A DNA stretch of 64,000 nucleotides. It comes from Bacteroidales bacterium (GTDB lineage: Bacteria; Bacteroidota; Bacteroidia; Bacteroidales; P3). The DNA is taken from NCBI GenBank assembly GCA_017480785.1, contig JAFURZ010000005.1, forward strand, positions 16,259 to 80,258, read 5' to 3'. A model generated the notes under the pieces. That model saw only the letters and a list, made by a program, of their open reading frames with translations, did no database searches and had not been told where the DNA came from. Numbering within the stretch: position 1 is the stretch's first letter; each line of letters begins with the position of its first letter. The translations under genes and the position numbers were made by a program. Positions 1,889 through 56,426 of this stretch are shown here, piece after piece.

Positions 1889-3181
1889 TTAATTATCAAA
1901 AATATATCCAATCCCTTGAGCCGGCGACCCGTCCTGCAGGTGGTAGTCGTCCTCCTCGACGTCGACAAACTGCGGATCCTCGTCCCAGTCGCCGCCCTTC
2001 ACGAGGCAATGGGTGAAACTGTAGTTGAGCTGGCAGGCGTCGATGCCGCTGGCAATCACCTCGGAGGGCGAGTAGTTGCCATAGATGATGCAGTCGGTGA
2101 AGTCGGCCCGCGTGAGGTCACCCTGCTGCATGACGCTGCCGTCGGCGGCCAGCAGGTAGTTGGTCAGCACCACGCTCTCGATGCTGCGCGACGAGTAGCG
2201 CCAGTAGTCGGCGAAGGTGCAGCCCGTGAAGTCGTAGCTGCCGCCCCGCAGCACGGTGAGGCAGGTCAGGCAGTCGTAGACCAGCAGGTTGCTGCCGCTG
2301 ATGGTGCCGCCCTGCCCTATCAGGGCACAGTCGCTCATGTTACGTATAATAGTGTTGCTCACCGTCAGGCCGGCCCCGGGGTAGACGCGCAGCCCTCCGG
2401 TGCCGTTCTCCACGATGGCGTGGTCTATCGCATTGCCCGTGCTGCCGCTGGTGAACCAGAGGCACTGCCACTGCCCCGGCAGGAACGAGTACCACCCGTC
2501 GTGGCGCAACGAGGTGAAGAGCACCGGCTGTCCGGCCGTGCCCACCGCCACCAGGCTGGCGTTGCTGTCGACGGCCAGGATGGCGTCGTTGTAGAAGTAG
2601 AGCTCGTCGCCGGCCTGCAGGGTGAGGGTGCTGCCGTCGAGCACGGCGGCGGTGCCGAGGATGATGTGGGGCCTCGTGTGGTCCCAGTTGGCACAGTCGA
2701 CCACGCTGTAGGGGGCACCCGCCGGCACCGTGTGGTACACGGCGTTGCGGCCCCAGGCCGTCAGCGGAAGCCGCTGGCCGTTGCTGAAACGGATGGCGTC
2801 CTCCACCAGGAAGGGCGAGGTCTGGTCGTTGGGGTCGATATTGGCCTGGACGAAGATGAAGATGCTGTCGCCCGAGAGCAGTTCCACGTCGCGTGCCACA
2901 AGCGACGTGTCGCCGTCCACATTGAGGCGGAAGCGGCTGGCCCGCCCGCCCTCGAGGGTGACGCTGCTGAGCACCACGTCATGGCCCGTGGCGTTGTACA
3001 CCACCACCTGACGGGTGGTGCTGCCCACGGTGGTGAAGAGGGTGTCGAAGGCCAGCGTGTCGACCGAGAAGGCCAGCGGCACCTCGCGCTCGTCGGCATA
3101 GCCACCCTCGATGCACGACACCGACAGCCAGGGCATCACCGCCAAGACGAGGATATATAACAGTTTCTTCATCGCCGGCAT
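1889..3181 (-). CDS. Putative lipoprotein with parallel beta-helix-like repeats
   Basis: 430-aa ORF with a signal peptide and lipobox (MPWLSVSC). Repeated beta-helix-like segments (NAIDHAIVENGTGGLRV, SNTIIRNMSDCALIG, TGCTFADYW). Stop is 6 nt before the ruvA start. Confidence 0.7.
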   Translation of the reverse strand: MPAMKKLLYILVLAVMPWLSVSCIEGGYADEREVPLAFSVDTLAFDTLFTTVGSTTRQVVVYNATGHDVVLSSVTLEGGRASRFRLNVDGDTSLVARDVELLSGDSIFIFVQANIDPNDQTSPFLVEDAIRFSNGQRLPLTAWGRNAVYHTVPAGAPYSVVDCANWDHTRPHIILGTAAVLDGSTLTLQAGDELYFYNDAILAVDSNASLVAVGTAGQPVLFTSLRHDGWYSFLPGQWQCLWFTSGSTGNAIDHAIVENGTGGLRVYPGAGLTVSNTIIRNMSDCALIGQGGTISGSNLLVYDCLTCLTVLRGGSYDFTGCTFADYWRYSSRSIESVVLTNYLLAADGSVMQQGDLTRADFTDCIIYGNYSPSEVIASGIDACQLNYSFTHCLVKGGDWDEDPQFVDVEEDDYHLQDGSPAQGIGYIFDN

Positions 3182-3191
3182 CGTCCCCCCC

Positions 3192-4421
3192 TTACTTTGT
3201 GTACAATCCTATTATCTTCTCCAGCCGCTCGCGGCACACAGGGCAGAAGGGGGCGTAGTCGCGCATCATGCAGTGCATCGTCGGCCGGTAGACGCCCGTC
3301 GACGAGTAGCCGGCCCCTTCGTAGACACCCAGCGGGCCGCACTCCGTACGGGGCACCTTGTGGTTGTCGGGTGTCGGCACGGGGGTCTTCTTCCTGAGCA
3401 TGTGCTTCCACTTGCGGCCGAAGTCGACCAGGTTGGTGATGTTGGGCTCCAGCGGCTCGTACCGTGTCCGGTGCAGGTCGGCATAGCTGAGGTCCTCGTC
3501 GACATACTCGTCGGCCAGCCCTCCGATGCCGTGGCCCAGCTCGTGCGTCAGCACCATCTCGGCCATCGAGTGCAGCGAGCTGACGGAGTAGAAGTTGTAG
3601 ATGGCGCCGCCGCCGTACTTGGCGTTGTTGAGCACGATGATGACATGGTCGGCCGGAGTGCCGGCAAGCACGTCGTGCAGCTGGAACAGGCGGAAGGTCA
3701 TGGCATAGCGGTCGGACCCCAACGCGTTGTAGTCCACGCCCGCATGGCCGCGGATGAAATAGATGTTGAAATCCTCGCGGTGGCTGTGGAACGGCTCGTT
3801 CCTGAAGAAGCCCTCGACCATGCGGCGGCAGACACTGTTGTAGTAGGCCGTGTCGTCGTCGAAGCCCTGCATGACGAAGGCCAGGTCGAACTTGACGCCG
3901 GGGGCGCCATGTATCTCGTACGCTTCGGCCTCGTTCGTAACAATGAACGGGGAAAGCCGGGTCTCCCCGGGATTAAAGGTCACCACCGTCTGGTCATAGA
4001 GCCGCATCGCCTTGTCGCGCTTCTGCAAGGCAATCGTCACCTTCCCCCTCGGCATCGGCAGCAGCAGCACCTCCTCGAAGCGGGCCTTCACGGTCTTGCC
4101 CTCGGGCGTGTCCTTGTACTCGCGGAAGAGGTTGCTGTAGCCACGCGAGTAGAGCTCGCGACCCGTGGCGGCATCGCGCATCACCACGCGGTAGTCGCCG
4201 TTGTCGAAGGGGTCGAGCAACTGCGTGCGCGAGCCGTACCATTCCCCGGGACGGCCTACCCAGCGCTCCACCCACACCGTGTCCCCCTGCGCCGACCCTT
4301 CGCGCAGACAGTCCATGCGCAGCGTGCCGCCGGTGAACCAGCGGTCGAACTCCACCTCCTGCCCCCGTGCCGGAAGCACGGCGGACAGCAACAATATCGC
4401 GACTGCAATAATCCTTTTCAT
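3192..4421 (-). CDS. Peptidase M64 (IgA-peptidase-like) family zinc metalloprotease
   Basis: 409-aa ORF with signal peptide MKRIIAVAILLLSAVLPARGQ and zinc motif THELGHGIGGLADEY. Overall layout matches the M64 family. Confidence 0.85.
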   Translation of the reverse strand: MKRIIAVAILLLSAVLPARGQEVEFDRWFTGGTLRMDCLREGSAQGDTVWVERWVGRPGEWYGSRTQLLDPFDNGDYRVVMRDAATGRELYSRGYSNLFREYKDTPEGKTVKARFEEVLLLPMPRGKVTIALQKRDKAMRLYDQTVVTFNPGETRLSPFIVTNEAEAYEIHGAPGVKFDLAFVMQGFDDDTAYYNSVCRRMVEGFFRNEPFHSHREDFNIYFIRGHAGVDYNALGSDRYAMTFRLFQLHDVLAGTPADHVIIVLNNAKYGGGAIYNFYSVSSLHSMAEMVLTHELGHGIGGLADEYVDEDLSYADLHRTRYEPLEPNITNLVDFGRKWKHMLRKKTPVPTPDNHKVPRTECGPLGVYEGAGYSSTGVYRPTMHCMMRDYAPFCPVCRERLEKIIGLYTK

Positions 4422-6243: not shown

Positions 6244-6252
6244 ACCCCACAA

Positions 6253-6423
6253 GTCCCCGCAGGGGACGACACTTCTTAGCCGTGGGCGTAAGCCCACGGG
6301 AACGTGAGAAAAAAACATTATAGAGCCCCGTAGGGGCGACACATTGACAATCTGCCTAGTGCCGCCCCCACGGGGCTCGGTCACATCACTCTTCCTTCAA
6401 CCGTGGGCTTACGCCCACGGCTA
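6253..6423. repeat. Cluster of nested GC-rich REP-like hairpins
   Basis: tagccgtgggcgtaagcccacgg (6277-6299) is inverted at 6401-6423. gagccccgtaggggc (6323-6337) is inverted at 6361-6378. gtccccgcaggggac lies at 6253-6267. Confidence 0.8.
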
Positions 6424-6476
6424 AAACTTTTCGCCCTTAACAGGGCTCTGTTTGCATTATGAGACATCCTCTCTTA

Positions 6477-25745: not shown

Positions 25746-25791
25746 CCCGCATCAATGCGAGACCGTTTTGCAGCACTTGCAATGCTCCCCG
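25746..25791 (-). repeat. 46-nt 3' element, copy downstream of the TM2 gene
   Basis: The reverse complement cggggagcattgcaagtgctgcaaaacggtctcgcattgatgcggg matches 56381-56426 at 40/46 positions. Confidence 0.8.
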
Positions 25792-25844
25792 AGCAAACCG
25801 CGGATAAAGATACACTGCTTGCTACATTAACGATTTGGTGACAG

Positions 25845-26282
25845 TTACCTGCTGTTCCATTTTGCCACGCGCTCTGCCCAGCCTTCGTCGTCATCGCAAA
25901 GCCAGACAATGCCTTCTATCAGTCCGATGATGGCTGGGACACCTGTCCAGCAAAAGAGGATGTCCAAAACACCACGCAGGGCTTGCCCTGTGTAGAAGTG
26001 CTGAACGCCAATATCTCCAAGGAGAATCGCAAGCAGGCCTGCTGTCAACTTGTCGGGGTTTTCGCTGAGTTCGAAAACTTCAGCAGACATATCGTTCTCT
26101 GTTGGGAACGATGCATCCTTCACTGCTTCGAAAGAAACAGAAGCAGGTTTTTCCTCGACCTGCTCGGTGAACATTTGGGGGTCGTTAGTGGTGGTGTTCT
26201 CGGGCTCGGCGAGCAATGACTGAGCTGATGCCGTGGCCATGCCCATCATGGCAGCAACGATTAGAGTAAGAACTCTTTTCAT
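25845..26282 (-). CDS. TM2 domain-containing membrane protein
   Basis: 145-aa ORF with a signal peptide and a C-terminal TM2 pattern (LLAILLGDIGVQHFYTGQALRGVLDILFCWTGVPAIIGLIEGI). Visibly less GC-biased than its flanks. Confidence 0.8.
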   Translation of the reverse strand: MKRVLTLIVAAMMGMATASAQSLLAEPENTTTNDPQMFTEQVEEKPASVSFEAVKDASFPTENDMSAEVFELSENPDKLTAGLLAILLGDIGVQHFYTGQALRGVLDILFCWTGVPAIIGLIEGIVWLCDDDEGWAERVAKWNSR

Positions 26283-26516
26283 AGGTGTGGTAATTTTATA
26301 AGGTTTTGTGCATTATTGCCATAAAAAAGGTACGGATGTTTCCGTCTGCCTTACAGGTTTACCACAACCTCCTTTCCCGACGGACACCGTACCATATAAA
26401 GCACGAATGCCCCAACGGGGAAGGATTATGGTGAAGCACTAATCGACTTCGAGGTGGTAATTTGTAAGGCAATTGAGTTCTTCTTGCCGTATGCATATCT
26501 CTCGCAAACGACGGTG

Positions 26517-26584
26517 CAAAAATACAAACTTTCTGCGACGTGACCAAATTTATTTTGCCATGTGGCTGAAATGTTGTATCTTTG
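26517..26584. promoter_or_regulatory. Back-to-back Bacteroides-type promoters (TM2 gene leftward, ribD rightward)
   Basis: Leftward TAttTTTG is the complement of 26517-26524; rightward TAtcTTTG is at 26577-26584. Central CAAA-tttat-TTTG supplies both -33 elements with 19-20 nt spacers. Confidence 0.65.
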
Positions 26585-26594
26585 CACCCTGAAA

Positions 26595-27677
26595 ATGACA
26601 CAGGAAGAGATAGACAAAAAGTATATGCGGCGCTGCCTGCAGCTGGCAGCCAACGGACTGGGTCGCGTGAGGCCCAACCCGTTGGTGGGGTGCGTGGTGG
26701 CGAGGCAAACGGAGAGTGGAGAGTGGAGAGTGGAGAGTGAAGGTTACCACCAATACTATGGCGGATGGCACGCCGAGCGCAACGCACTATTGCGTGCAAG
26801 CCAACTTTCAACTTTCAACTCTCAACTTTCAACTTTATATGTCAACCTCGAGCCCTGCTCGCACTACGGCCACACGCCACCCTGCGCCGACCTCATCATC
26901 GAGAAGGGCATCCGCCGGGTGGTCTGCTGCAACGACGACCCCAACCCCCTGGTGGCGGGGGGCGGCTTCCGCAAGCTGGAGGCCGCCGGCATCGAGGTGG
27001 TGCGTCACGTGCTCGAAGCGGAGGGCCGCGAACTGAACCGCCGCTTCTTCACCTTCATGGAGCAGCAGCGGCCCTACGTCATCCTCAAGTGGGCCGAGAG
27101 CAAGGACGGCTACATGGCGCCAAGCCCTAATTCTCAATCAGAACAAAAAGAAAATTCTGATAGTTCTTTTAGTTCTGATTGCAATAAAAAATACTGGCTC
27201 AGCACGCAGGAGCAGAACCGCCTGAACCACCGCTGGCGCACCGAGGAGGCCGCCATCCTCGTGGGCAGTGAGACCTTCCTGCGCGACCACCCCTCGCTCA
27301 CGGCACGCCACTACCTCGGTTCACAGCCGCAGCCCGTGGTGCTCGACCGCCGCGGACGCTTACTATCCCAATCAGAGGTTATTTCTCAATCAGGACTAAA
27401 AGAAAGTTCTGATAGTTCTTTTAGTTCTGATTGCAACAAAAGAGAATGGCTGGTTCTGCGGAGCCAGACCATCCCCGAGGTGCTGCATGCACTCTACGAG
27501 CACAAGCTGCAGAGCGTCATCGTCGAGGGCGGCCGCCAGATGCTGGACGCCTTCATCGAGAGCGGCCTCTACGACGAGGTGCGCATCCTCCGCAGCCTGC
27601 AGACCCTCGGCAGCGGCCTCAAGGCTCCCGCCATCCCGCCCATCGCCCCCAACCGCCTAATCATCATCGAGCCATGA
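26595..27677 (+). CDS. ribD: Bifunctional riboflavin biosynthesis deaminase/reductase RibD
   Basis: ORF 26562..27677 trimmed to ATG 26595, 10 nt after TAtcTTTG. Motifs RPNPLVGCVV, HAE, LEPCSHYGHTPPC and the reductase motif VIVEGGRQMLDAFIESGLYDEV. Confidence 0.9.
   Translation: MTQEEIDKKYMRRCLQLAANGLGRVRPNPLVGCVVARQTESGEWRVESEGYHQYYGGWHAERNALLRASQLSTFNSQLSTLYVNLEPCSHYGHTPPCADLIIEKGIRRVVCCNDDPNPLVAGGGFRKLEAAGIEVVRHVLEAEGRELNRRFFTFMEQQRPYVILKWAESKDGYMAPSPNSQSEQKENSDSSFSSDCNKKYWLSTQEQNRLNHRWRTEEAAILVGSETFLRDHPSLTARHYLGSQPQPVVLDRRGRLLSQSEVISQSGLKESSDSSFSSDCNKREWLVLRSQTIPEVLHALYEHKLQSVIVEGGRQMLDAFIESGLYDEVRILRSLQTLGSGLKAPAIPPIAPNRLIIIEP
26711..26738 (+). repeat. GGAGAGT x4 heptamer array inside ribD
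   Basis: Four perfect units read as ESGEWRVES. Confidence 0.9.
26803..26837 (+). repeat. AACTTTC x5 heptamer array inside ribD (imperfect inverse of 26711-26738)
   Basis: Units aactttc x2, aactctc, aactttc, aacttta. Read as QLSTFNSQLSTL. Confidence 0.9.
27127..27190 (+). repeat. In-frame palindromic element copy 1 inside ribD
   Basis: aatcagaacaaaaagaa...ttctgatagttcttttagttctgattgcaa. Reads PNSQSEQKENSDSSFSSDCNKK. Confidence 0.85.
27368..27445 (+). repeat. In-frame palindromic element copy 2 inside ribD
   Basis: caatcaggactaaaagaa...ttctgatagttcttttagttctgattgcaa (30 nt identical to copy 1). Reads SQSEVISQSGLKESSDSSFSSDCNKRE. Confidence 0.85.
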
Positions 27678-30174: not shown

Positions 30175-30210
30175 GTCTGCAACGATATTGTAACCACAAA
30201 TTCCAAGGTG

Positions 30211-30279
30211 CAAAAGTACAACATTTTCAACAAATAGGCAAAACAATTGTCTCCATCTGGAAAAAAAGTTGTAATTTTG
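30211..30279. promoter_or_regulatory. Back-to-back promoters (T9SS cargo gene leftward, yigZ-like rightward)
   Basis: Leftward TActTTTG is the complement of 30211-30218; rightward TAatTTTG is at 30272-30279, 5 nt before ATG 30285. Confidence 0.6.
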
Positions 30280-30284
30280 CAGTC

Positions 30285-30887
30285 ATGTTCGACGACACCT
30301 ATAGAACCATCGCCGCACCCGCCGAGGGTCTCTACAAGGAGAAAGGCAGCAAGTTCCTGGCTTTCGCCTACCCCGTGCGCACCATCGACGAGGTGAAGGC
30401 CCATCTGGAGCAGCTGCGCAAGGACTACTTCGACGCACGGCACCACTGCTACGCCTACATCCTCGGGCCCCGCAAGGACGCCTTCCGCGCCAACGACGAC
30501 GGCGAACCCAGCGGCACCGGCGGCCGCCCCATCCACGGCCAGCTCCTCTCGGCCGACCTCACGGATACCTTGATAGTGGTGGTGCGCTACTTCGGCGGCA
30601 TCCTCCTCGGTGCCAGCGGCTTGGCCAACGCCTACAAGACCGCCGCACGTGACGCCATCGACCACGCCACCATCGTCGAACGCACCATCGACTGCCGCTA
30701 CCGCCTCACGTTCAAGTACGAAACGATGAACGACGTGATGCGCATACTCAAAGACTTCGACCTCAAACCGTTGAATCCGGTCTACAACCTCGACTGCATG
30801 CTCGAAGTGGCCATCCGCCAGTCGGAGAGCGTCCGCTTCTACGACGCCGTGGCCGACCTGCGGACCGTGGAAATCGAGCCGCTCTAG
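30285..30887 (+). CDS. YigZ/IMPACT family protein
   Basis: ORF 30114..30887 trimmed to ATG 30285. Motifs EKGSKFLAFAYPV, HHCYAYILG and NDDGEPSGTGGRPI. Confidence 0.85.
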   Translation: MFDDTYRTIAAPAEGLYKEKGSKFLAFAYPVRTIDEVKAHLEQLRKDYFDARHHCYAYILGPRKDAFRANDDGEPSGTGGRPIHGQLLSADLTDTLIVVVRYFGGILLGASGLANAYKTAARDAIDHATIVERTIDCRYRLTFKYETMNDVMRILKDFDLKPLNPVYNLDCMLEVAIRQSESVRFYDAVADLRTVEIEPL

Positions 30888-31160: not shown

Positions 31161-31412
31161 TGGTGATGAAACGGAGGTGGTGCAGATTATATCGTGCACG
31201 ATTTAATTCACAATCCCGCACCACCGACGGTGGCCCAGGTCGGCGAGGTGGAGGAGGAGGAAAAAGCAGCCGGAGCAAAACTTTTTTTGGCCGTGTCGGA
31301 AAAAAGTTGTAATTTCGTGCTTTGAAGCAGCCCGCCCATTCGCGCCCTCGACAGCGTACAACGGGTTGATTTCGACGTAGATAAACCGTTTTGACAAAAT
31401 AGAGACATATAT

Positions 31413-37971: not shown

Positions 37972-38097
37972 CATAGAAATGGCAGAGGCGGCGGGGCGCG
38001 GAGAGCGAGGAGTCGGGGACAATGCCTCCCGGGGACTTGGGCAGCAGCAAAACCTGTTGATTTTGGTGCGTCCATCCCGAGGAAAGAAAAAAAATAT

Positions 38098-38128
38098 TTT
38101 GCCAGTTGAAAAAATGTTTGTAACTTTG
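38098..38128 (+). promoter_or_regulatory. Promoter of rplM-rpsI
   Basis: TTTG (38098-38101), 19-nt spacer, TAacTTTG (38121-38128). Confidence 0.6.
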
Positions 38129-38295
38129 CACTCTCCAAAAATGGGGATAGTGTGTCTTGTAGACCCGTTCAAGACACATATTCTCAGGTTGGTACGCACG
38201 TAGGCCAATTATCCGTCAGCGGCCGAAATGTGGTTCAGCCGGAGGAGAAAACAATGAAGAAAAGAGAAAAAAATCATCGTTAGTAAAATAAAAAA

Positions 38296-40220: not shown

Positions 40221-40313
40221 AGCCCCGTAGGGGCGAAAGAACATAGGCGGGGGTGGAGCGTAGCGAAACCCCCGTTTATAAAATAAAATCACCATTTAAG
40301 CCCCGTAGGGGCG
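40221..40313. repeat. REP-like hairpins (AGCCCCGTAGGGGCG x2 plus CGGGGG..CCCCCG)
   Basis: The 15-nt unit at 40221-40235 and 40299-40313 is identical to 6323-6337. Confidence 0.8.
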
Positions 40314-41523: not shown

Positions 41524-42308
41524 TTATTCAATCATTTCAACGGTTCTTCCAGACGAAAAGCACTCAAGTGTATTGGGTTCTCCTGTATTGAAATAACACG
41601 GAGATGCAGAAACCATCATGGTAAAAAAACCTATTTTCTTCACCTCACATCTCGTGATATAAAATTTGTTTCTAATCTTTTTCCATTGAGGATTGTCTAT
41701 ATTATTTGAAAAAGTAAGGATGTGTTCACACATAAGATCTTCTTTACTGTATACTCCTTTTTTTCTCTCTAGAGAGTACCTAGAGGGTCTTGTCATTCGG
41801 AAGAACTTGACGTTACTTCTTGAATGAGGAGGGATTCCAACAAAACGTTCTTCTGTGGTCTGAACAAACGTGCCTGATGTAGAAGTTTCCCCCATGTTTA
41901 CACCATTTGCTACGGTTTGAGTTATTGGTCCAGCGCCTACGGCTCTTGTCACCGCACCGGCATTCACATTCATACTCCTGCTTTGGATATTCGTTGTTGT
42001 GACGACAGCATTATTATATATTTTGATAGCGTTTCCATAATTAGTTCCAAGTTCGTTATGTGAAATAAAAAAGGATTCCCCCAGATCAATATATAACATG
42101 CTGTCCGTCTCATTATAAACAAACAATGAACCATCTACATCATATTCTAACCGAATACCTTCATCTGAAATGGAGACTTCCATTCGAGATTGGTTGTCAG
42201 GTTTACATTCAGAATTAACACAGCGAACAGTGTAGGTTAGTCGGTTTACCGGCACGCATGATGTAAAAAGTGTAATTGCTAGGGTAGCAACAAAAAAGTT
42301 TTTTTCAT
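41524..42308 (-). pseudogene. Hypothetical lipoprotein gene, start codon out of frame at an A7/T6 tract; phase-variation candidate (AT-rich islet)
   Basis: The body ORF 41524..42255 is listed from GTG. Upstream, ATG 42308 reads MKKTFLLLP-stop. One extra A (A8) or T (T7) would give MKK(N/T)FFVATLAITLFTSC VPVNRL..., a canonical lipoprotein signal fused to the body. GC content is far below the flanks. No domain recognised. Confidence 0.5.
42292..42305 (-). repeat. A7-C-T6 tract immediately after the ATG of the lipoprotein gene
   Basis: Minus strand reads atg aaaaaaa c tttttt g. A +1 change in either run restores the lipoprotein signal peptide frame. Confidence 0.85.
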
Positions 42309-42560
42309 ATTTTATACCCTAATACGTGCCGGGCGCAACTTTCAAGCTCTTCCGCACCCCGTTGAGCGATTATTAAAGAAGCGTGGTGCCGTCACACCAT
42401 TCTTACATGGAGGTCGTAGGAATTACCTTGAAAAGAGAAGATGCAATAAGCCCACGCTATATAGCGAAGACCATTACACAAATTCTGCTTTTCTCTGGAA
42501 GTTTCCTACGTTTCCATGTACAGAATAAGCGTAAACGCTTCGGTGATTTCCTCATGAAAT
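42309..42560 (-). promoter_or_regulatory. Conserved long 5' leader (copy 1) upstream of the frameshifted lipoprotein gene
   Basis: Aligns block by block with 55647-55880. Shared blocks include GATTTC-N5-GAAATC, CGAAGCGTT, TATAGCGTGG, CAAGGTA, ACCACGCTTCT and CGCTCAACGGGGT. Confidence 0.55.
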
Positions 42561-42566
42561 CGACTG

Positions 42567-42634
42567 CAAAAGTACAAACTTTCTACGACGTGGCCAAATT
42601 TATTTTGCCATGTGGCTGAATTGTCGTATCTTTG
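42567..42634. promoter_or_regulatory. Back-to-back promoters (lipoprotein gene leftward, Bro-N gene rightward)
   Basis: Leftward TActTTTG is the complement of 42567-42574; rightward TAtcTTTG is at 42627-42634. 67/72 identical to 26515-26586. Confidence 0.65.
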
Positions 42635-42657
42635 CAGTCGGAAAACACACATTCGGC

Positions 42658-43497
42658 ATGACGAAGAAGCAAGCAATACAATTCTTTGAGGAGAAGAAGG
42701 TGCGCACCGTGTGGGACGACGAGCAGGAGAAGTGGTATTTCTCCATCGTGGACACCGTGGCGGTGCTGACGGACAGCCCCAATCCGCACAATTATTGGAA
42801 AGTCTTGAAACATAGGCTCAAGAAAGAGGGCAACGAGTCGGTTACAAAATGTAACCAACTGAAATTAATATCGACCGACGGGAAAAGCTACAAGACTGAT
42901 GTCGCCGACACCGAGCAGCTTTTCCGCCTCATCCAGTCCATCCCCTCGCCCAAGGCGGAGCCTTTCAAGCAGTGGATGGCGCAGGTGGCGGCCGAGCGGC
43001 TGGACCAGATGCAGGACCCCGAGCTGGGCATCGAGCAGGCGCTGATGGACTACAAACGGCTGGGCTACTCCGACAACTGGATCAACCAGCGGCTGAAGTC
43101 CATCGAGATACGCAAGGACCTCACCGACGAGTGGAAGCGCCACGGCCTGAAGGAGGGCGTGCAGTTCGCCACGCTGACCGACATCATCTACCATACATGG
43201 TCGGGTATGACCGCCAAGGAGTACAAGCACTTCAAAGGCCTAAAGAAGGAGAATCTGCGCGACAACATGACGAATAGGGAACTCGTCCTCAACATGCTGG
43301 CCGAACTCTCCACCAAGGACATCTCCGAGGCGCGCAACCCCGAGACCTTCGGCGAGCACGCCGAGGTGGCCCGACAGGGCGGCGAGATTGCCGCTGGCGC
43401 CCGCCGTGAGCTTGAAGCCAAGACCGGCAAGCCAGTCGTCACCTCGCTCAACGCCAAGGACGTGTTGCAGATTGAAGACAAAGCCACCGAAAAGTAA
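42658..43497 (+). CDS. Bro-N domain protein (DinD/antirepressor-like C-terminal half)
   Basis: ORF 42610..43497 trimmed to ATG 42658. Bro-N-like FEEKKVRTVWDDEQEKWYFSIVDTVAVL. The C-terminal part resembles DNA-damage-inducible protein D-type proteins. Confidence 0.75.
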   Translation: MTKKQAIQFFEEKKVRTVWDDEQEKWYFSIVDTVAVLTDSPNPHNYWKVLKHRLKKEGNESVTKCNQLKLISTDGKSYKTDVADTEQLFRLIQSIPSPKAEPFKQWMAQVAAERLDQMQDPELGIEQALMDYKRLGYSDNWINQRLKSIEIRKDLTDEWKRHGLKEGVQFATLTDIIYHTWSGMTAKEYKHFKGLKKENLRDNMTNRELVLNMLAELSTKDISEARNPETFGEHAEVARQGGEIAAGARRELEAKTGKPVVTSLNAKDVLQIEDKATEK

Positions 43498-45701: not shown

Positions 45702-45727
45702 AGTTACTGACTGTTGATTTGGTGTTG

Positions 45728-45795
45728 CAAAGATACAAAAGTTGTACGAGATGACAAAATTAATTTTGCCACGTCGCGGAATATGTGTATCTTTG
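45728..45795. promoter_or_regulatory. Back-to-back promoters (comM/yifB leftward, sodB rightward)
   Basis: Leftward TAtcTTTG is the complement of 45728-45735; rightward TAtcTTTG is at 45788-45795. Central CAAA-attaat-TTTG with 19-nt spacers. Confidence 0.65.
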
Positions 45796-45852
45796 CAAAA
45801 TAAAATCGTTCAAGAATCAACGCATTAACACACATAAAATATTCTAAGAGAT

Positions 45853-46495: not shown

Positions 46496-46573
46496 ACGGG
46501 TTGCGTGTACGCCACTCTTGTTGATAAGTAATTTTTCCCATTCCAGATAATCTTCGTACTTTTGCAGTTTGAA

Positions 46574-47134
46574 ATGAAAAGACTCTGGATAGCTATCGTG
46601 AAGCTCTGCGGATGGCGCTTCTGCCTGCCCGACAAGGAGGCGCGGCCCGAGGTGATGCGTTGCGTCTATGCCGCTGCACCCCACACGGCGGTCAGCGATT
46701 TCCTCGTCGGCATCGCCTACATGTGGGCCATCGGGACGCCAGGGCACATCTTCATCAAGAAAGAGTTCTTCCGCTGGCCGCTGGGGAGGCTGCTGCGTCG
46801 CTACGGCTGTGTAGCCATCGACCGCGGCAATCCCAAAAACGGCCTCGTGGAGCGCGCCGTACAAGGCTTTCGCGACCATCGTGAGTTCTCCGTCATCATC
46901 ACCCCCGAAGGCACCCGCAAACCAGTACAGCGGTGGAAGCGCGGCTTCTGGGAGATAGCCACCCAGGCCGGAGTGCCCATCGTGCCGGTCTACATCGACT
47001 TCAGCCGCAAGGAGATAGGCCTTTTCGACACCCTCTGGCCCACGACCGACCGTGAAGACGACACCCGCCGCCTGCGGACCCTCTACAGCAAGACGATGGC
47101 CAAGCGGCCCAAACAGTTCATCGAGTTGAAATAA
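46574..47134 (+). CDS. 1-acyl-sn-glycerol-3-phosphate acyltransferase family protein
   Basis: ORF from TTG 46562 trimmed to ATG 46574, 10 nt after TActTTTG. HX4D motif (PHTAVSD) and ITPEGTR. Confidence 0.8.
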   Translation: MKRLWIAIVKLCGWRFCLPDKEARPEVMRCVYAAAPHTAVSDFLVGIAYMWAIGTPGHIFIKKEFFRWPLGRLLRRYGCVAIDRGNPKNGLVERAVQGFRDHREFSVIITPEGTRKPVQRWKRGFWEIATQAGVPIVPVYIDFSRKEIGLFDTLWPTTDREDDTRRLRTLYSKTMAKRPKQFIELK

Positions 47135-54952: not shown

Positions 54953-54981
54953 AGATATAATGTTTTTTTGATTTCCGACTG

Positions 54982-55049
54982 CAAAATTACACATTTTCGG
55001 GCAATTGGCAAAATATATTTTGCAGAATGGAATAAATGTAGTACTTTTG
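54982..55049. promoter_or_regulatory. Back-to-back promoters (pepD leftward, 55074 gene rightward)
   Basis: Leftward TAatTTTG is the complement of 54982-54989; rightward TActTTTG is at 55042-55049. Central CAAA-atatat-TTTG with 19-nt spacers. Confidence 0.65.
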
Positions 55050-55073
55050 CACACACTTTCAAACAATAAAACC

Positions 55074-55481: not shown

Positions 55482-55572
55482 AAAAAAGAAATCGACAGGC
55501 TGGCTCGCTCGGAAGGTCATCGCCAAATTGTGGACGTCTGAACTGGACTGTTCCCCTATTGATTTCCGACTG

Positions 55573-55641
55573 CAAAAGTACAACTTTTTTTCGGACTGAC
55601 AAAATTTATTTTTGCCAGTCCGATTTATTTATGTATTTTTG
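55573..55641. promoter_or_regulatory. Promoter module upstream of the small OMP gene; its leftward half has no target gene
   Basis: Leftward TActTTTG is the complement of 55573-55580; rightward TAttTTTG is at 55634-55641 with TTTG at 55611-55614 (19-nt spacer). Confidence 0.6.
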
Positions 55642-55646
55642 CAGCC

Positions 55647-55880
55647 GATTTCGGAAGGAAATCTTCGAAGCGTTATATCTTCGTCTTGCGATTGGGAATG
55701 TGAGAAGTTCATCGATAAGCGAGATAGGTATGATGGTTCGCGTGTATAGCGTGGACTTTATATCACATCTGCTTATCAAGGTATTCTCACAACCTCCAAT
55801 CGAAGAAGTGGTGTACGGTACCACGCTTCTGTTTTAACCGCTCAACGGGGTACGGGAGAGCACGAAAAAAACTAATAATA
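55647..55880 (+). promoter_or_regulatory. Conserved long 5' leader (copy 2) upstream of the small OMP gene
   Basis: Same blocks in the same order as 42309-42560 (minus). 5'-terminal hairpin GATTTC(55647-52)/GAAATC(55658-63). Confidence 0.55.
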
Positions 55881-56351
55881 ATGAAAAGATTAACGGTAAT
55901 TGCAGTGCTCATTCTTTTTTTAGCTTCAATGCAAGCAAACGCACAAACCACAGATGACCAACAAAAGATGGATTACACGAGAGGTAGTGGCTTTGTAATT
56001 CGTCCTGAATTAAACAATGGTCTACTTGCTACATTAGGTTACCAAATTAACCCTTATGTAATGTTAGAAGGGAGCCTTGGTTTTGATTTGTCGGGCTCTG
56101 CAGCCATGACTACGGTTATCGGTGTCAGGGCATACACTTCTAGCAAGCCTTGGGCCGCTTTTTTTGATTATCGTGTTGGCGCAGAAAGCGTCTCGGGATA
56201 TAGCATAACTAGACATACGATTGTTGCAGGTGCAGCATATAAAGACTTTGATTTTGGAGCCGGTGTAATATTCGGCACTGATGGGACGACAAGTGTCACA
56301 GGTCTATCCATCTCAATTGGATATAATATTCGCTGCTACAAGCACCGATAA
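55881..56351 (+). CDS. Small exported beta-barrel-like protein (AT-rich islet)
   Basis: 156-aa ORF with signal peptide MKRLTVIAVLILFLASMQANAQ and a short barrel-like pattern ending GLSISIGYNIRCYKHR. Markedly AT-richer than its flanks. Confidence 0.6.
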   Translation: MKRLTVIAVLILFLASMQANAQTTDDQQKMDYTRGSGFVIRPELNNGLLATLGYQINPYVMLEGSLGFDLSGSAAMTTVIGVRAYTSSKPWAAFFDYRVGAESVSGYSITRHTIVAGAAYKDFDFGAGVIFGTDGTTSVTGLSISIGYNIRCYKHR

Positions 56352-56380
56352 CAGTCCGTTTAACGCCATCTGTAAATGTG

Positions 56381-56426
56381 CGGGAAGCATTGCAAGTGCT
56401 GCGAAACAGTCGCGCATTGATGCGCT
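56381..56426 (+). repeat. 46-nt 3' element, copy downstream of the small OMP gene
   Basis: cgggaagcattgcaagtgctgcgaaacagtcgcgcattgatgcgct. Contains the near-palindrome agcattgcaagtgct and the palindrome gcgcattgatgcgc. Confidence 0.8.

Follow-up and report, generated by a model that had tools for sequence, protein, structure and literature searches.

An undescribed family of structured RNA leaders upstream of unrelated accessory genes in Bacteroidales

Two genes with no resemblance to each other share a long leader sequence in the metagenome-assembled genome of an uncultured Bacteroidales bacterium, which raises the question of what kind of element this leader is and why it stands in front of both genes. 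The stretch of DNA analyzed in the present study (hereafter, the window) comprises 64,000 nucleotides (nt) of contig JAFURZ010000005.1 (assembly GCA_017480785.1; positions 16,259 to 80,258, forward strand). An initial sequence-only reading of the window proposed that a leader of approximately 240 nt, located upstream of a gene for a small outer membrane protein (OMP) and a frameshifted lipoprotein gene, is a conserved candidate cis-regulatory RNA. Copy A (55560-55900, plus strand) and copy B (42650-42290, minus strand) are 71% identical over approximately 310 nt (blastn E 8e-26; MAFFT), and nhmmer and a covariance model both identified exactly two copies in the whole window. The leader itself spans 55641-55861 in copy A and 42567-42346 in copy B, with an identity of approximately 70%. 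The series of short conserved blocks on which the proposal was based is present in both copies, with the order and positions confirmed in the sequence and in the MAFFT alignment. The two coding sequences were also correctly regarded as unrelated (BLASTP E 41 between the two proteins). Both are AT-rich (38-42% GC) single-gene islets inside a region of approximately 60% GC, and their neighbors are housekeeping genes, such as tsf, comM, purL, cutC, and hemD. As described below, the leader is an undescribed, widespread structured RNA family in rumen, gut, and oral Bacteroidales.

The leader matched no named RNA family. A search of Rfam 15 at the gathering threshold, covering the whole window and 20 other loci, gave no match on the leader, and when E values up to 10 were allowed for copies A and B, the results were noise (microRNA, snoRNA, and the IS128 sRNA) with bit scores far under gathering. 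The strings of the leader were absent from the full texts searched and from the first 200 supplementary files of Fremin and Bhatt 2021, and keyword searches returned nothing relevant. However, the leader is not confined to the window. A metagenome scan with its 3' block, GCTCAACGGGGNNCGGNAGAGC, returned 40 loci, which appear to be mostly from rumen samples; 35 carried the leader (nhmmer E 1e-10 to 1e-60) and five were chance matches. Loci outside the window are given L-numbers (L007, L014, and others), and copy A is also designated winA. A covariance model built from 27 distinct full-length copies, the search proposed by the sequence-only reading, detected further copies, including those that the scan pattern could not have selected. 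It recognized divergent versions, of which only the rod is kept, ahead of distant homologues of the OMP operon (57 bits in L049 and 31 bits in L054) and second copies in L038 and L025. Copies from human isolates, initially reached by blastn against a plasmid collection, scored 73-104 bits and were carried by Parabacteroides distasonis, Phocaeicola massiliensis, Bacteroides uniformis (plasmid pBUN1), B. finegoldii, and Prevotella sp. oral taxon 299. No leader copy was found in viral contigs by two pattern scans or in a phage collection by blastn. A pattern scan of genome contigs with CCACGCTTCTN{5,10}CGCTCAACGGGG had a single match, a chance occurrence in a metagenome-assembled genome of Magnetococcales.

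The 27 members of the family share one fold, which is larger than the short hairpins originally noted because it includes a rod of approximately 70 base pairs and a pseudoknot. From 5' to 3', it consists of a hairpin (P1), the rod, an AU-rich linker, and a second hairpin (P8). P1 is a 6-bp hairpin with an invariant stem and a loop of 2-6 nt that varies in sequence. The stem GATTTC-N5-GAAATC, which had been predicted for the 5' end of the transcript, is this helix, and it begins exactly 5 nt past the -7 box TAnnTTTG in both window copies. The rod is an imperfect duplex of approximately 163 nt with the apex UAUAGCGUGG. It is closed by the helix GAAGCGU/ACGCUUC, which is paired in 100% of the family, and TAGCGT at the apex is kept in 25 of 27 family copies and in all human-isolate copies. 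P8 has the family form GCUC-AACGGGGYRCGGRA-GAGC. Both window copies folded far better than shuffled sequences (RNAfold). The features of the two copies and their genes are as follows.

55567-55646, plus strand: promoter cassette of copy A, palindromic and back to back, matching itself on both strands; reverse -7 box TGCAAAAGTAC at its left end, forward -33 element TTTG at 55611-55614, and forward -7 box TATTTTTG at 55634-55641
55642-55646, plus strand: CAGCC, within which transcription of copy A is predicted to start from the known Bacteroides promoter consensus
55647-55663, plus strand: P1 of copy A, the 5'-terminal hairpin GAUUUC-GGAAG-GAAAUC
55667-55829, plus strand: rod of copy A, an imperfect hairpin of approximately 70 bp (RNAfold z -5.4); closing helix GAAGCGU (55667-55673) with ACGCUUC (55823-55829), apex TAGCGT at 55747-55752
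55818-55822, plus strand: pseudoknot strand 1 of copy A, GUACC, with its partner at 55849-55853
55830-55839, plus strand: AU-rich linker of copy A, UGUUUUAACC
55840-55861, plus strand: P8 of copy A, the 3' hairpin GCUC-AACGGGGUACGGGA-GAGC; its loop at 55849-55853 (GGUAC) is pseudoknot strand 2
55862-55880, plus strand: A-rich spacer of copy A, up to the start codon
55881-56351, plus strand: gene A, an open reading frame (ORF) for an exported, small OMP-like protein of 156 amino acids (aa), 42% GC
42567-42640, minus strand: promoter cassette of copy B, palindromic; -33 element TTTG at 42598-42595 and -7 box TACTTTTG at 42574-42567
42346-42566, minus strand: leader copy B (covariance model score 219.9 bits; RNAfold z -4.4)
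42561-42545, minus strand: P1 of copy B
42541-42378, minus strand: rod of copy B, apex TAGCGT at 42459-42454
42389-42385 and 42358-42354, minus strand: pseudoknot strands 1 (GCACC) and 2 (GGUGC) of copy B
42377-42368, minus strand: linker of copy B
42367-42346, minus strand: P8 of copy B
42309-42345, minus strand: extra 3' module of copy B, UUGAAAGUUGCGCCCGGCACGUAUUAGGGUAUAAAAU
41524-42308, minus strand: gene B, a frameshifted lipoprotein gene (MKKTFFVATLAITLFTSC...), approximately 38% GC

Covariation supports this fold. In the MAFFT alignment (A4), 97.6% of cells were paired, whereas pairing decreased to 36-48% when the partner was slid (RNAalifold and pair counts); double-change cells numbered 156 versus 7-26 in the slid controls, and the covariation score was 0.386 versus 0.05-0.10. 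An alignment of 34 sequences guided by the covariance model, including the human-isolate and divergent copies, had 97.0% pairing, compensatory changes in 32 of 50 pairs, and 287 double-change cells versus 77 in shuffles; since it was fitted to the model, it leans toward the structure. The structure-supporting covariation that had been expected of a genuine leader was, therefore, borne out across further copies. The sense strand was more stable than the antisense strand in 27/27 sequences, by a mean of 11 kcal/mol, and several pairs are predominantly G-U. There was no conserved ORF, with no frame being stop-free across the family. Since the sense strand is the more stable, G-U pairs are common, and no frame is conserved, we consider the element to act as RNA or at least as one specific strand. 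Two other candidates were rejected. Antisense ORFs of 72-78 aa are present at homologous positions in copies A and B; however, their peptides are dissimilar and no frame is stop-free, which excluded an antisense small protein. The central bubble of a 6S-like RNA was not found because the apex half is nearly fully paired in the fold of each sequence; moreover, the element is present in multiple copies and in mRNA leaders.

A pseudoknot connects the two ends of the fold. The two positions left free in the P8 loop by the search pattern (Y'R') covary perfectly with YR of ACGGYRCCAC, which the rod carries in its basal internal loop and which adjoins the closing helix on the 5' side of its 3' strand. 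The resulting 5-bp pseudoknot, GYRCC/GGY'R'C, is paired in 27/27 rumen sequences (135/135 cells), with the combinations CA|UG (15), CG|CG (5), UA|UA (3), UG|CA (2), and UG|CG (2). Compensatory differences separate even near relatives, namely, L014 and L018 (91% identical), L028 and L036 (88%), and winA and L007 (78%). The pattern used in the metagenome scan corresponds to the P8 region, and, thus, the conservation of the P8 sequence is partly due to ascertainment; nevertheless, its two free positions covary with the rod. Since the pseudoknot strand runs on directly into the 3' strand of the closing helix, P8 lengthens this helix from 7 stacked pairs to 12. Both pseudoknot partners are missing together from the divergent and human-isolate copies.

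The sequence-only reading had proposed a different second hairpin, AGAAG-TGGT...ACCA-CG-CTTCT. It may be drawn in both window copies; however, its support in the family is weak (78.5% paired, no better than shuffles), and its 3' strand is better explained by the long-range closing helix and the pseudoknot. This weak support also led us to reject it as a conserved terminator. One of its pairs (columns 188:196) covaries too, such that the R of the pseudoknot 5' strand (column 196 of A4) covaries with two partners. Therefore, the RNA may switch between the pairings of the second hairpin and the pseudoknot.

The position of the leader is as conserved as its fold. In 22 of the 27 rumen-family copies with sufficient sequence upstream, exactly 5 nt separate P1 from the end of a strict TTTG-N19/20-TAnnTTTG promoter, four others have the -7 box with a variant -33 element, and the last (L015) is a 5'-truncated recombinant. 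In L015 (2801-3029), an unrelated sequence takes the place of the promoter, of P1, and of the rod's 5' third, and the 3' two-thirds of the rod, the pseudoknot partners, and P8 are all intact. The -7 box is also present upstream of the human-isolate and divergent copies, and in the human-isolate copies it is followed by a 5' hairpin with a sequence unlike that of the rumen P1. All copies with readable flanks are in the sense orientation between a Bacteroidetes promoter and ATG, namely, in the 5' untranslated region (UTR), as expected of a cis-acting leader, and every copy is followed by a sense-strand ORF. The spacer to ATG is 14-22 nt and mostly A-rich (L026 is an exception), or 32-65 nt in copies with an additional module. 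Neither stray nor inverted copies were found in approximately 280 kb of fetched loci, in which weak opposite-strand matches were the palindrome's own antisense. An alternative considered at the outset was that the shared sequence may simply be the end of an insertion sequence or a MITE (miniature inverted-repeat transposable element); however, the copies are not scattered as this would predict.

The leader is also independent of the gene that it precedes. The locus L007 shares with the window only 55563-56363, which includes the promoter cassette, leader, and OMP gene, starts at the reverse -7 box, and ends 12 nt past the stop codon. OMP orthologues at 87% identity have the leader, whereas those at 80% and 73% have ordinary short leaders, and more distant OMP operons have a divergent rod or none. 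We concluded that the leader is a portable module because close orthologues of the downstream gene lack it, and a link of the leader to the OMP family was rejected. Conversely, leaders 83% identical to copy B precede four different genes, with similarity stopping approximately 10 nt before ATG. The GC content of the leader is 0.44-0.48, and that of its flanks ranges from 0.34 to 0.65. Shared synteny and a common 3' boundary were examined and rejected. A divergent 183-aa ORF is a neighbor at three loci, but the three proteins are unrelated; a downstream sequence of approximately 260 nt at five loci is a separate GC-rich REP-like repeat and not a common 3' boundary; and L007 does not have the 3' motif that the islets of the window share.

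The cargo genes mostly encode small AT-rich envelope proteins. A signal peptide, lipobox, or transmembrane segment was found in 22 of 23 distinct rumen cargo proteins, in which Pfam domains were scarce (CD225 with a zinc ribbon, DUF6140, and DUF6232). In the window, protein A is a small OMP-like beta-barrel with a weak OMP_b-brl match, and protein B was nearly an orphan in homologue searches. The frameshift of gene B lies in an A7/T6 tract just past ATG (42308-42255, minus strand). It is not a sequencing error because the same frameshift is present in five independent assemblies (L063-L067), and it may reflect a pseudogene, phase variation, or programmed frameshifting. The cargo in human isolates includes a lipoprotein and two genes of known types. 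On the mobilizable plasmid pBUN1 of B. uniformis (L071), the leader (3009-3236) lies directly 3' of toprim and MobV relaxase genes and is followed by the extended-spectrum beta-lactamase gene blaMUN-1 (3252-4160). In P. distasonis (L069), the leader (2469-2685) is preceded by a toprim gene and a hypothetical protein without a Pfam match, and is followed by a 419-aa toxin with a DarT domain (2684-3943) and then a DUF6939 protein that weakly matches the NADAR antitoxin family (under the Pfam cutoff).

The similarity of the two window loci upstream of the -7 box is a feature separate from the leader. It is a palindromic cassette of approximately 80 nt with back-to-back Bacteroidetes promoters, made up of two -33 elements flanked by a -7 box in the reverse and another in the forward direction (TGCAAAnnTAC ... 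CAAA / TTTG ... TAnnTTTGCA). The cassettes linked to the leader span 55567-55647 (copy A) and 42561-42640 (copy B), and the cassette recurs without the leader at 26515-26595, 45726-45797, 54969-55060, and 30209-30291; weaker copies are located at 38095-38133, 46525-46575, and 31274-31317. The cassettes at 26515-26595 and upstream of copy B are 90% identical. The reverse promoter of copy B points toward a Bro-N gene starting at 42658. That of copy A faces the 3' end of a co-directional gene, so there is no gene for it to drive there. As single-stranded DNA, the palindromic cassette could fold into a duplex promoter, by analogy with Frpo of the F plasmid.

A third islet (25748-26600, minus strand) has the same cassette, an exported TM2-like protein (25845-26282), and an unrelated structured leader of 235 nt (z -3.7), which was not matched by the covariance model. 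At its 3' end, a 44-nt motif (25748-25791) is 91% identical to 56381-56424, past the OMP gene, and a weaker copy is located past gene B. L068, which carries a homologue of gene B at 33% identity, has an unrelated structured leader of approximately 290 nt (z -4.6). Based on the third islet and L068, long folded leaders may be a general habit of such genes.

Several short sequences accompany the leader or its cargo. Two optional modules, neither of which matches Rfam, may be inserted between P8 and ATG. One of these, GUUGCGCCCGRCACGUAUUAGGG, is present in the window (42345-42309), L043, L046, L013, and L048; it is predicted to form alternative pairs with the P8 loop (GGGUGCG/UGCGCCC, and CCC with GGG), and GCACCC of L013 would pair perfectly. 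The other, CUGAUGRGCCGACAGGAUAAAACGGC, forms a small hairpin in L016, L033, L039, L027, and L023 and also accompanies divergent rods in L038 (approximately 3595-3630) and L025 (approximately 2485-2450). Downstream of cargo genes, GC-rich REP-like repeats with the hairpin units GTCCCCGAAGGGGAC, CAGGGGT...ACCCCTG, and GTCACCCCTTCGGGGT are found in L012, L013, L026, L021, and L039. One such unit is located in the window (40223-40275), and in L012 (5484-5788 and 5904-6359, minus strand) the repeat adjoins an IS200-like Y1 transposase (Pfam Y1_Tnp, E 4e-18). Short tandem-like repeats also follow cargo genes, of the CCAAATGATTTTGAAAATGG type in L009/L041 and L024 and of the GAAATGAAACGG type in L031, L040, and L014. 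The Rfam search returned two Acido-Lenti-1 matches above gathering (43.3 and 40.4 bits) at 6252-6299 (minus strand) and 6401-6447 (plus strand), which are inverted and approximately 100 nt apart.

What does the leader do? With some reservation, we lean toward a general role as a cis-acting mRNA leader. A near-consensus Bacteroidetes promoter would fire a few nucleotides before P1. The following stretch of approximately 165 nt would zip into the rod of approximately 70 bp, and, in the rumen copies, P8 would dock on the base of the rod via the pseudoknot. The promoter and leader travel as one expression unit ahead of unrelated accessory genes. 5'-terminal stem-loops stabilize mRNAs, such as those of Escherichia coli ompA and Bacillus subtilis ermC, and Bacteroidetes start translation on A-rich, unstructured leaders without a Shine-Dalgarno sequence. 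Since 5' stem-loop stabilizers and Shine-Dalgarno-independent initiation are both known, we propose as the most likely mechanism that the 5'-terminal hairpin, of which the rumen and human subfamilies have two sequence versions, and the compact fold shield the transcript from 5'-end-dependent decay, and that packing away 200 nt of the leader leaves the A-rich site on which ribosomes land accessible regardless of the downstream gene. A trans-acting protein or small ligand that adjusts output would probably dock at the invariant junction (GAAGCGUUAU, UACGGYRCCACGCUUC, and the P8 loop). Within this reading, a stabilizer or insulator is roughly as likely as a regulated switch.

Several observations are difficult to reconcile with this role. 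A pure stabilizer would require neither this number of invariant nucleotides nor a pseudoknot, a switching structure has no clear support, and the terminator-like hairpin is weak. Only the rod is universal, with P1 and P8 being specific to subfamilies, and the rumen copies have a U-run after the rod that is missing from the human-isolate copies. The possibility that the U-rich linker pairs with the A-rich spacer and hides the start region was rejected (mean z -0.19 in 30 copies). The cargo genes have no common metabolic theme that points to a ligand. Furthermore, the apex TAGCGT and the place of the pBUN1 copy just after mobV fit a single-strand origin that functions at the DNA level.

The U-run suggests a riboswitch-like or protein-dependent attenuator, in which the closing helix and U-run form a terminator and a ligand or protein bound at the junction selects between an RNA of approximately 190 nt and the full mRNA. 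In the rumen main family, UUUU directly follows CGCUUC in 21/27 copies, the 8 nt after this helix containing 5.6 U on average, and a run of U4-U7 lies right past the helix in four divergent rumen copies. A terminator scan flagged this site in copies A and B alike, invariant nucleotides are concentrated at the junction, and the R position of the pseudoknot, with its two covarying partners, hints at mutually exclusive pairings. However, the human-isolate copies keep the rod without this run, and no antiterminator was found, both candidate helices ending at the U-run. Since P8 and the pseudoknot are situated past the putative stop, they would be relevant in read-through transcripts only, and the cargo suggests no ligand. 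We regard this mechanism as doubtful. The same promoter, P1, closed rod, and U-run may instead define an independent small RNA gene, the product of which, an RNA of approximately 190 nt, acts in trans or sponges a protein, with the downstream gene being expressed by read-through or merely adjacent. Its own consensus promoter, the strong conservation of structure, and cargo without a common function are consistent with this. However, the 15-65 nt or so between the rod and ATG leave no room for a second promoter and contain no -7 box, P8 docks on the rod from past the U-run, and conservation reaches within approximately 10 nt of ATG. In addition, the variable helices change by compensation and, therefore, are not guide or seed sequences, and the human-isolate copies would have no U-run at which to end. 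A small RNA gene is accordingly quite unlikely and fits worse than the attenuator.

The main rival, and a serious alternative although an unlikely one, operates at the DNA level: the rod may be a single-strand origin resembling ssoA, which folds in the transferred DNA strand of mobilizable elements and is recognized by RNA polymerase or primase to start synthesis of the complementary strand, its position in leaders being secondary. ssoA is an imperfect hairpin of approximately 160 nt that carries the CS-6 motif 5'-TAGCGT-3' and functions in one orientation only (PMC4598088; PMC5703833). The rod has a similar length (approximately 165 nt), is strand-specific (the sense strand being the more stable in 27/27 sequences), and has the near-invariant TAGCGT at its apex (25/27). 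The sense-strand polarity of the rod is also what we take to be that of the strand that rolling-circle plasmids displace. The pBUN1 copy directly follows the toprim and MobV genes on their 3' side, as palA lies 3' of the MobV gene pre in pT181. Moreover, half of the copies carry CCUGAGAAAUUUU, which is similar to the RSB core GCCGAGAAAAUUU. However, approximately half of the copies read CCUGAGAAAUUUU and the others CCUAGGAAA at the site compared with RSB (about TTATGCCGAGAAAATTT), and the two differing positions covary with their partners (GA/AG), which suggests that pairing rather than sequence is kept. We located and folded palA of pT181 for comparison, and the covariance model with filters off detected no homology to it (the best hit in pT181 was 8.1 bits, E 0.057, and not at palA). 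An origin would not need to lie between a promoter and ATG in all copies, at a constant 5 nt past the -7 box in the rumen family. Most copies from the rumen family, copies A and B among them, accompany single genes among housekeeping genes without mob or rep nearby, and the 5'-terminal hairpin, G-U pairs, and pseudoknot to a hairpin abutting the ribosome site fit RNA better. A selfish palindrome of the MITE, Correia, or ERIC type, without a function itself and with an outward promoter, is very unlikely and, similar to the small RNA gene, fits worse than either the attenuator or the origin. A long imperfect palindrome at unrelated loci, its constant GC content across hosts of very different GC, its presence or absence among close orthologues, and other repeat families in the same contigs are in accordance with such an element. 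In contrast, copies that are 70-90% identical and differ by dozens of compensatory changes indicate long-term selection on the fold. All copies have the same orientation and keep a fixed distance to the promoter and ATG, P1, the pseudoknot, and P8 are not palindromic and make the element asymmetric, and antisense copies or copies away from gene starts were absent from the approximately 280 kb searched.

Comparisons with known systems place the leader between several classes. Similar to the 5'-UTR hairpins of ompA, ermC, and cspA, it has a hairpin at the extreme 5' end, a long leader duplex, a proposed action in cis without a ligand, and an ordinary coding sequence downstream; one cargo gene also encodes a small OMP. 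The hairpin of Staphylococcus aureus cspA is cut by RNase III. However, these hairpins are features of single genes that form no portable family, have fewer invariant nucleotides, and lack a 70-bp rod with a hairpin docked through a pseudoknot. The ZTP/pfl riboswitch is also a covarying 5' leader with many copies ahead of different genes, in which a 3' hairpin docks on a 5' domain by a short pseudoknot with covariation, the linker in between being variable in length (9-21 nt in the leader family). In contrast to this riboswitch, the leader has no Rfam match, its core is a rod rather than a multi-helix junction, its cargo has no metabolic theme, and its human-isolate and divergent copies have neither the pseudoknot nor P8.

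Among DNA elements, ssoA/palA (pT181 and pMV158) shares the strand-specific imperfect hairpin of approximately 160 nt, TAGCGT in the loop, and, in pBUN1, a location 3' of a MobV gene. It differs in that the covariance model detected no homology, the leader always lies between a promoter and a start codon, and most copies are chromosomal without mob or rep. Correia (NEMIS) and ERIC sequences are long imperfect palindromes within mRNAs, some of which carry promoters and alter mRNA stability, and they are present or absent at orthologous sites. However, they occur in either orientation, in 5', 3', or inter-cistronic positions, with terminal inverted repeats and many near-identical copies, whereas the members of the leader family share a single orientation and position and carry extra domains that are asymmetric. 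The rAID-1 clusters are also found in Bacteroidales, consist of small AT-rich (≤41% GC) accessory genes, many of which are directed to the envelope, have a repeated non-coding sequence ahead of each gene, and show signs of horizontal transfer (Ross et al. 2019, bioRxiv 10.1101/471110). That description sets them apart from the leader, in that a XerD-like recombinase is followed by arrays of co-directional genes. The leader copies accompany single genes, and there was no recombinase among the neighbors examined in the window or in five long loci. For the same reasons (single genes and no recombinase gene among the window neighbors examined), the leader does not appear to be an integron attC site or rAID-1 repeat; no GTTRRRY / RYYYAAC pair was noted at the base of the rod (GCGTTAT / CCACGCTTC) by eye, without a pattern search.

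One further possibility, which we offer tentatively and consider doubtful, is that the rod leader is a license for foreign genes borne by mobile elements, namely, an RNA read by a factor of the host or element that switches on new cargo, for example after conjugative entry. The rod may possibly double as a single-strand DNA origin or, with the cassette, as a single-strand promoter. Alternatively, envelope stress may be the trigger, the cargo being immunity and surface proteins, toxins, and a beta-lactamase. If this were true, the leader would represent a new class of RNA, a sensor or adaptor the regulon of which is set by horizontal transfer and not by a pathway.

The family lies immediately upstream of clinically relevant cargo, namely, blaMUN-1 on a mobilizable plasmid and the DarT toxin, and the existence of cultured carriers makes it directly testable. 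The portable promoter and leader are a candidate natural expression part for Bacteroides engineering. The present results add a large, well-supported structured RNA to a phylum with few known cis-acting RNAs and an unusual mode of translation initiation, and provide a handle on the expression of horizontally acquired genes. If the junction binds a factor, accessory envelope genes in Bacteroidales would make up a new regulon defined by this factor.

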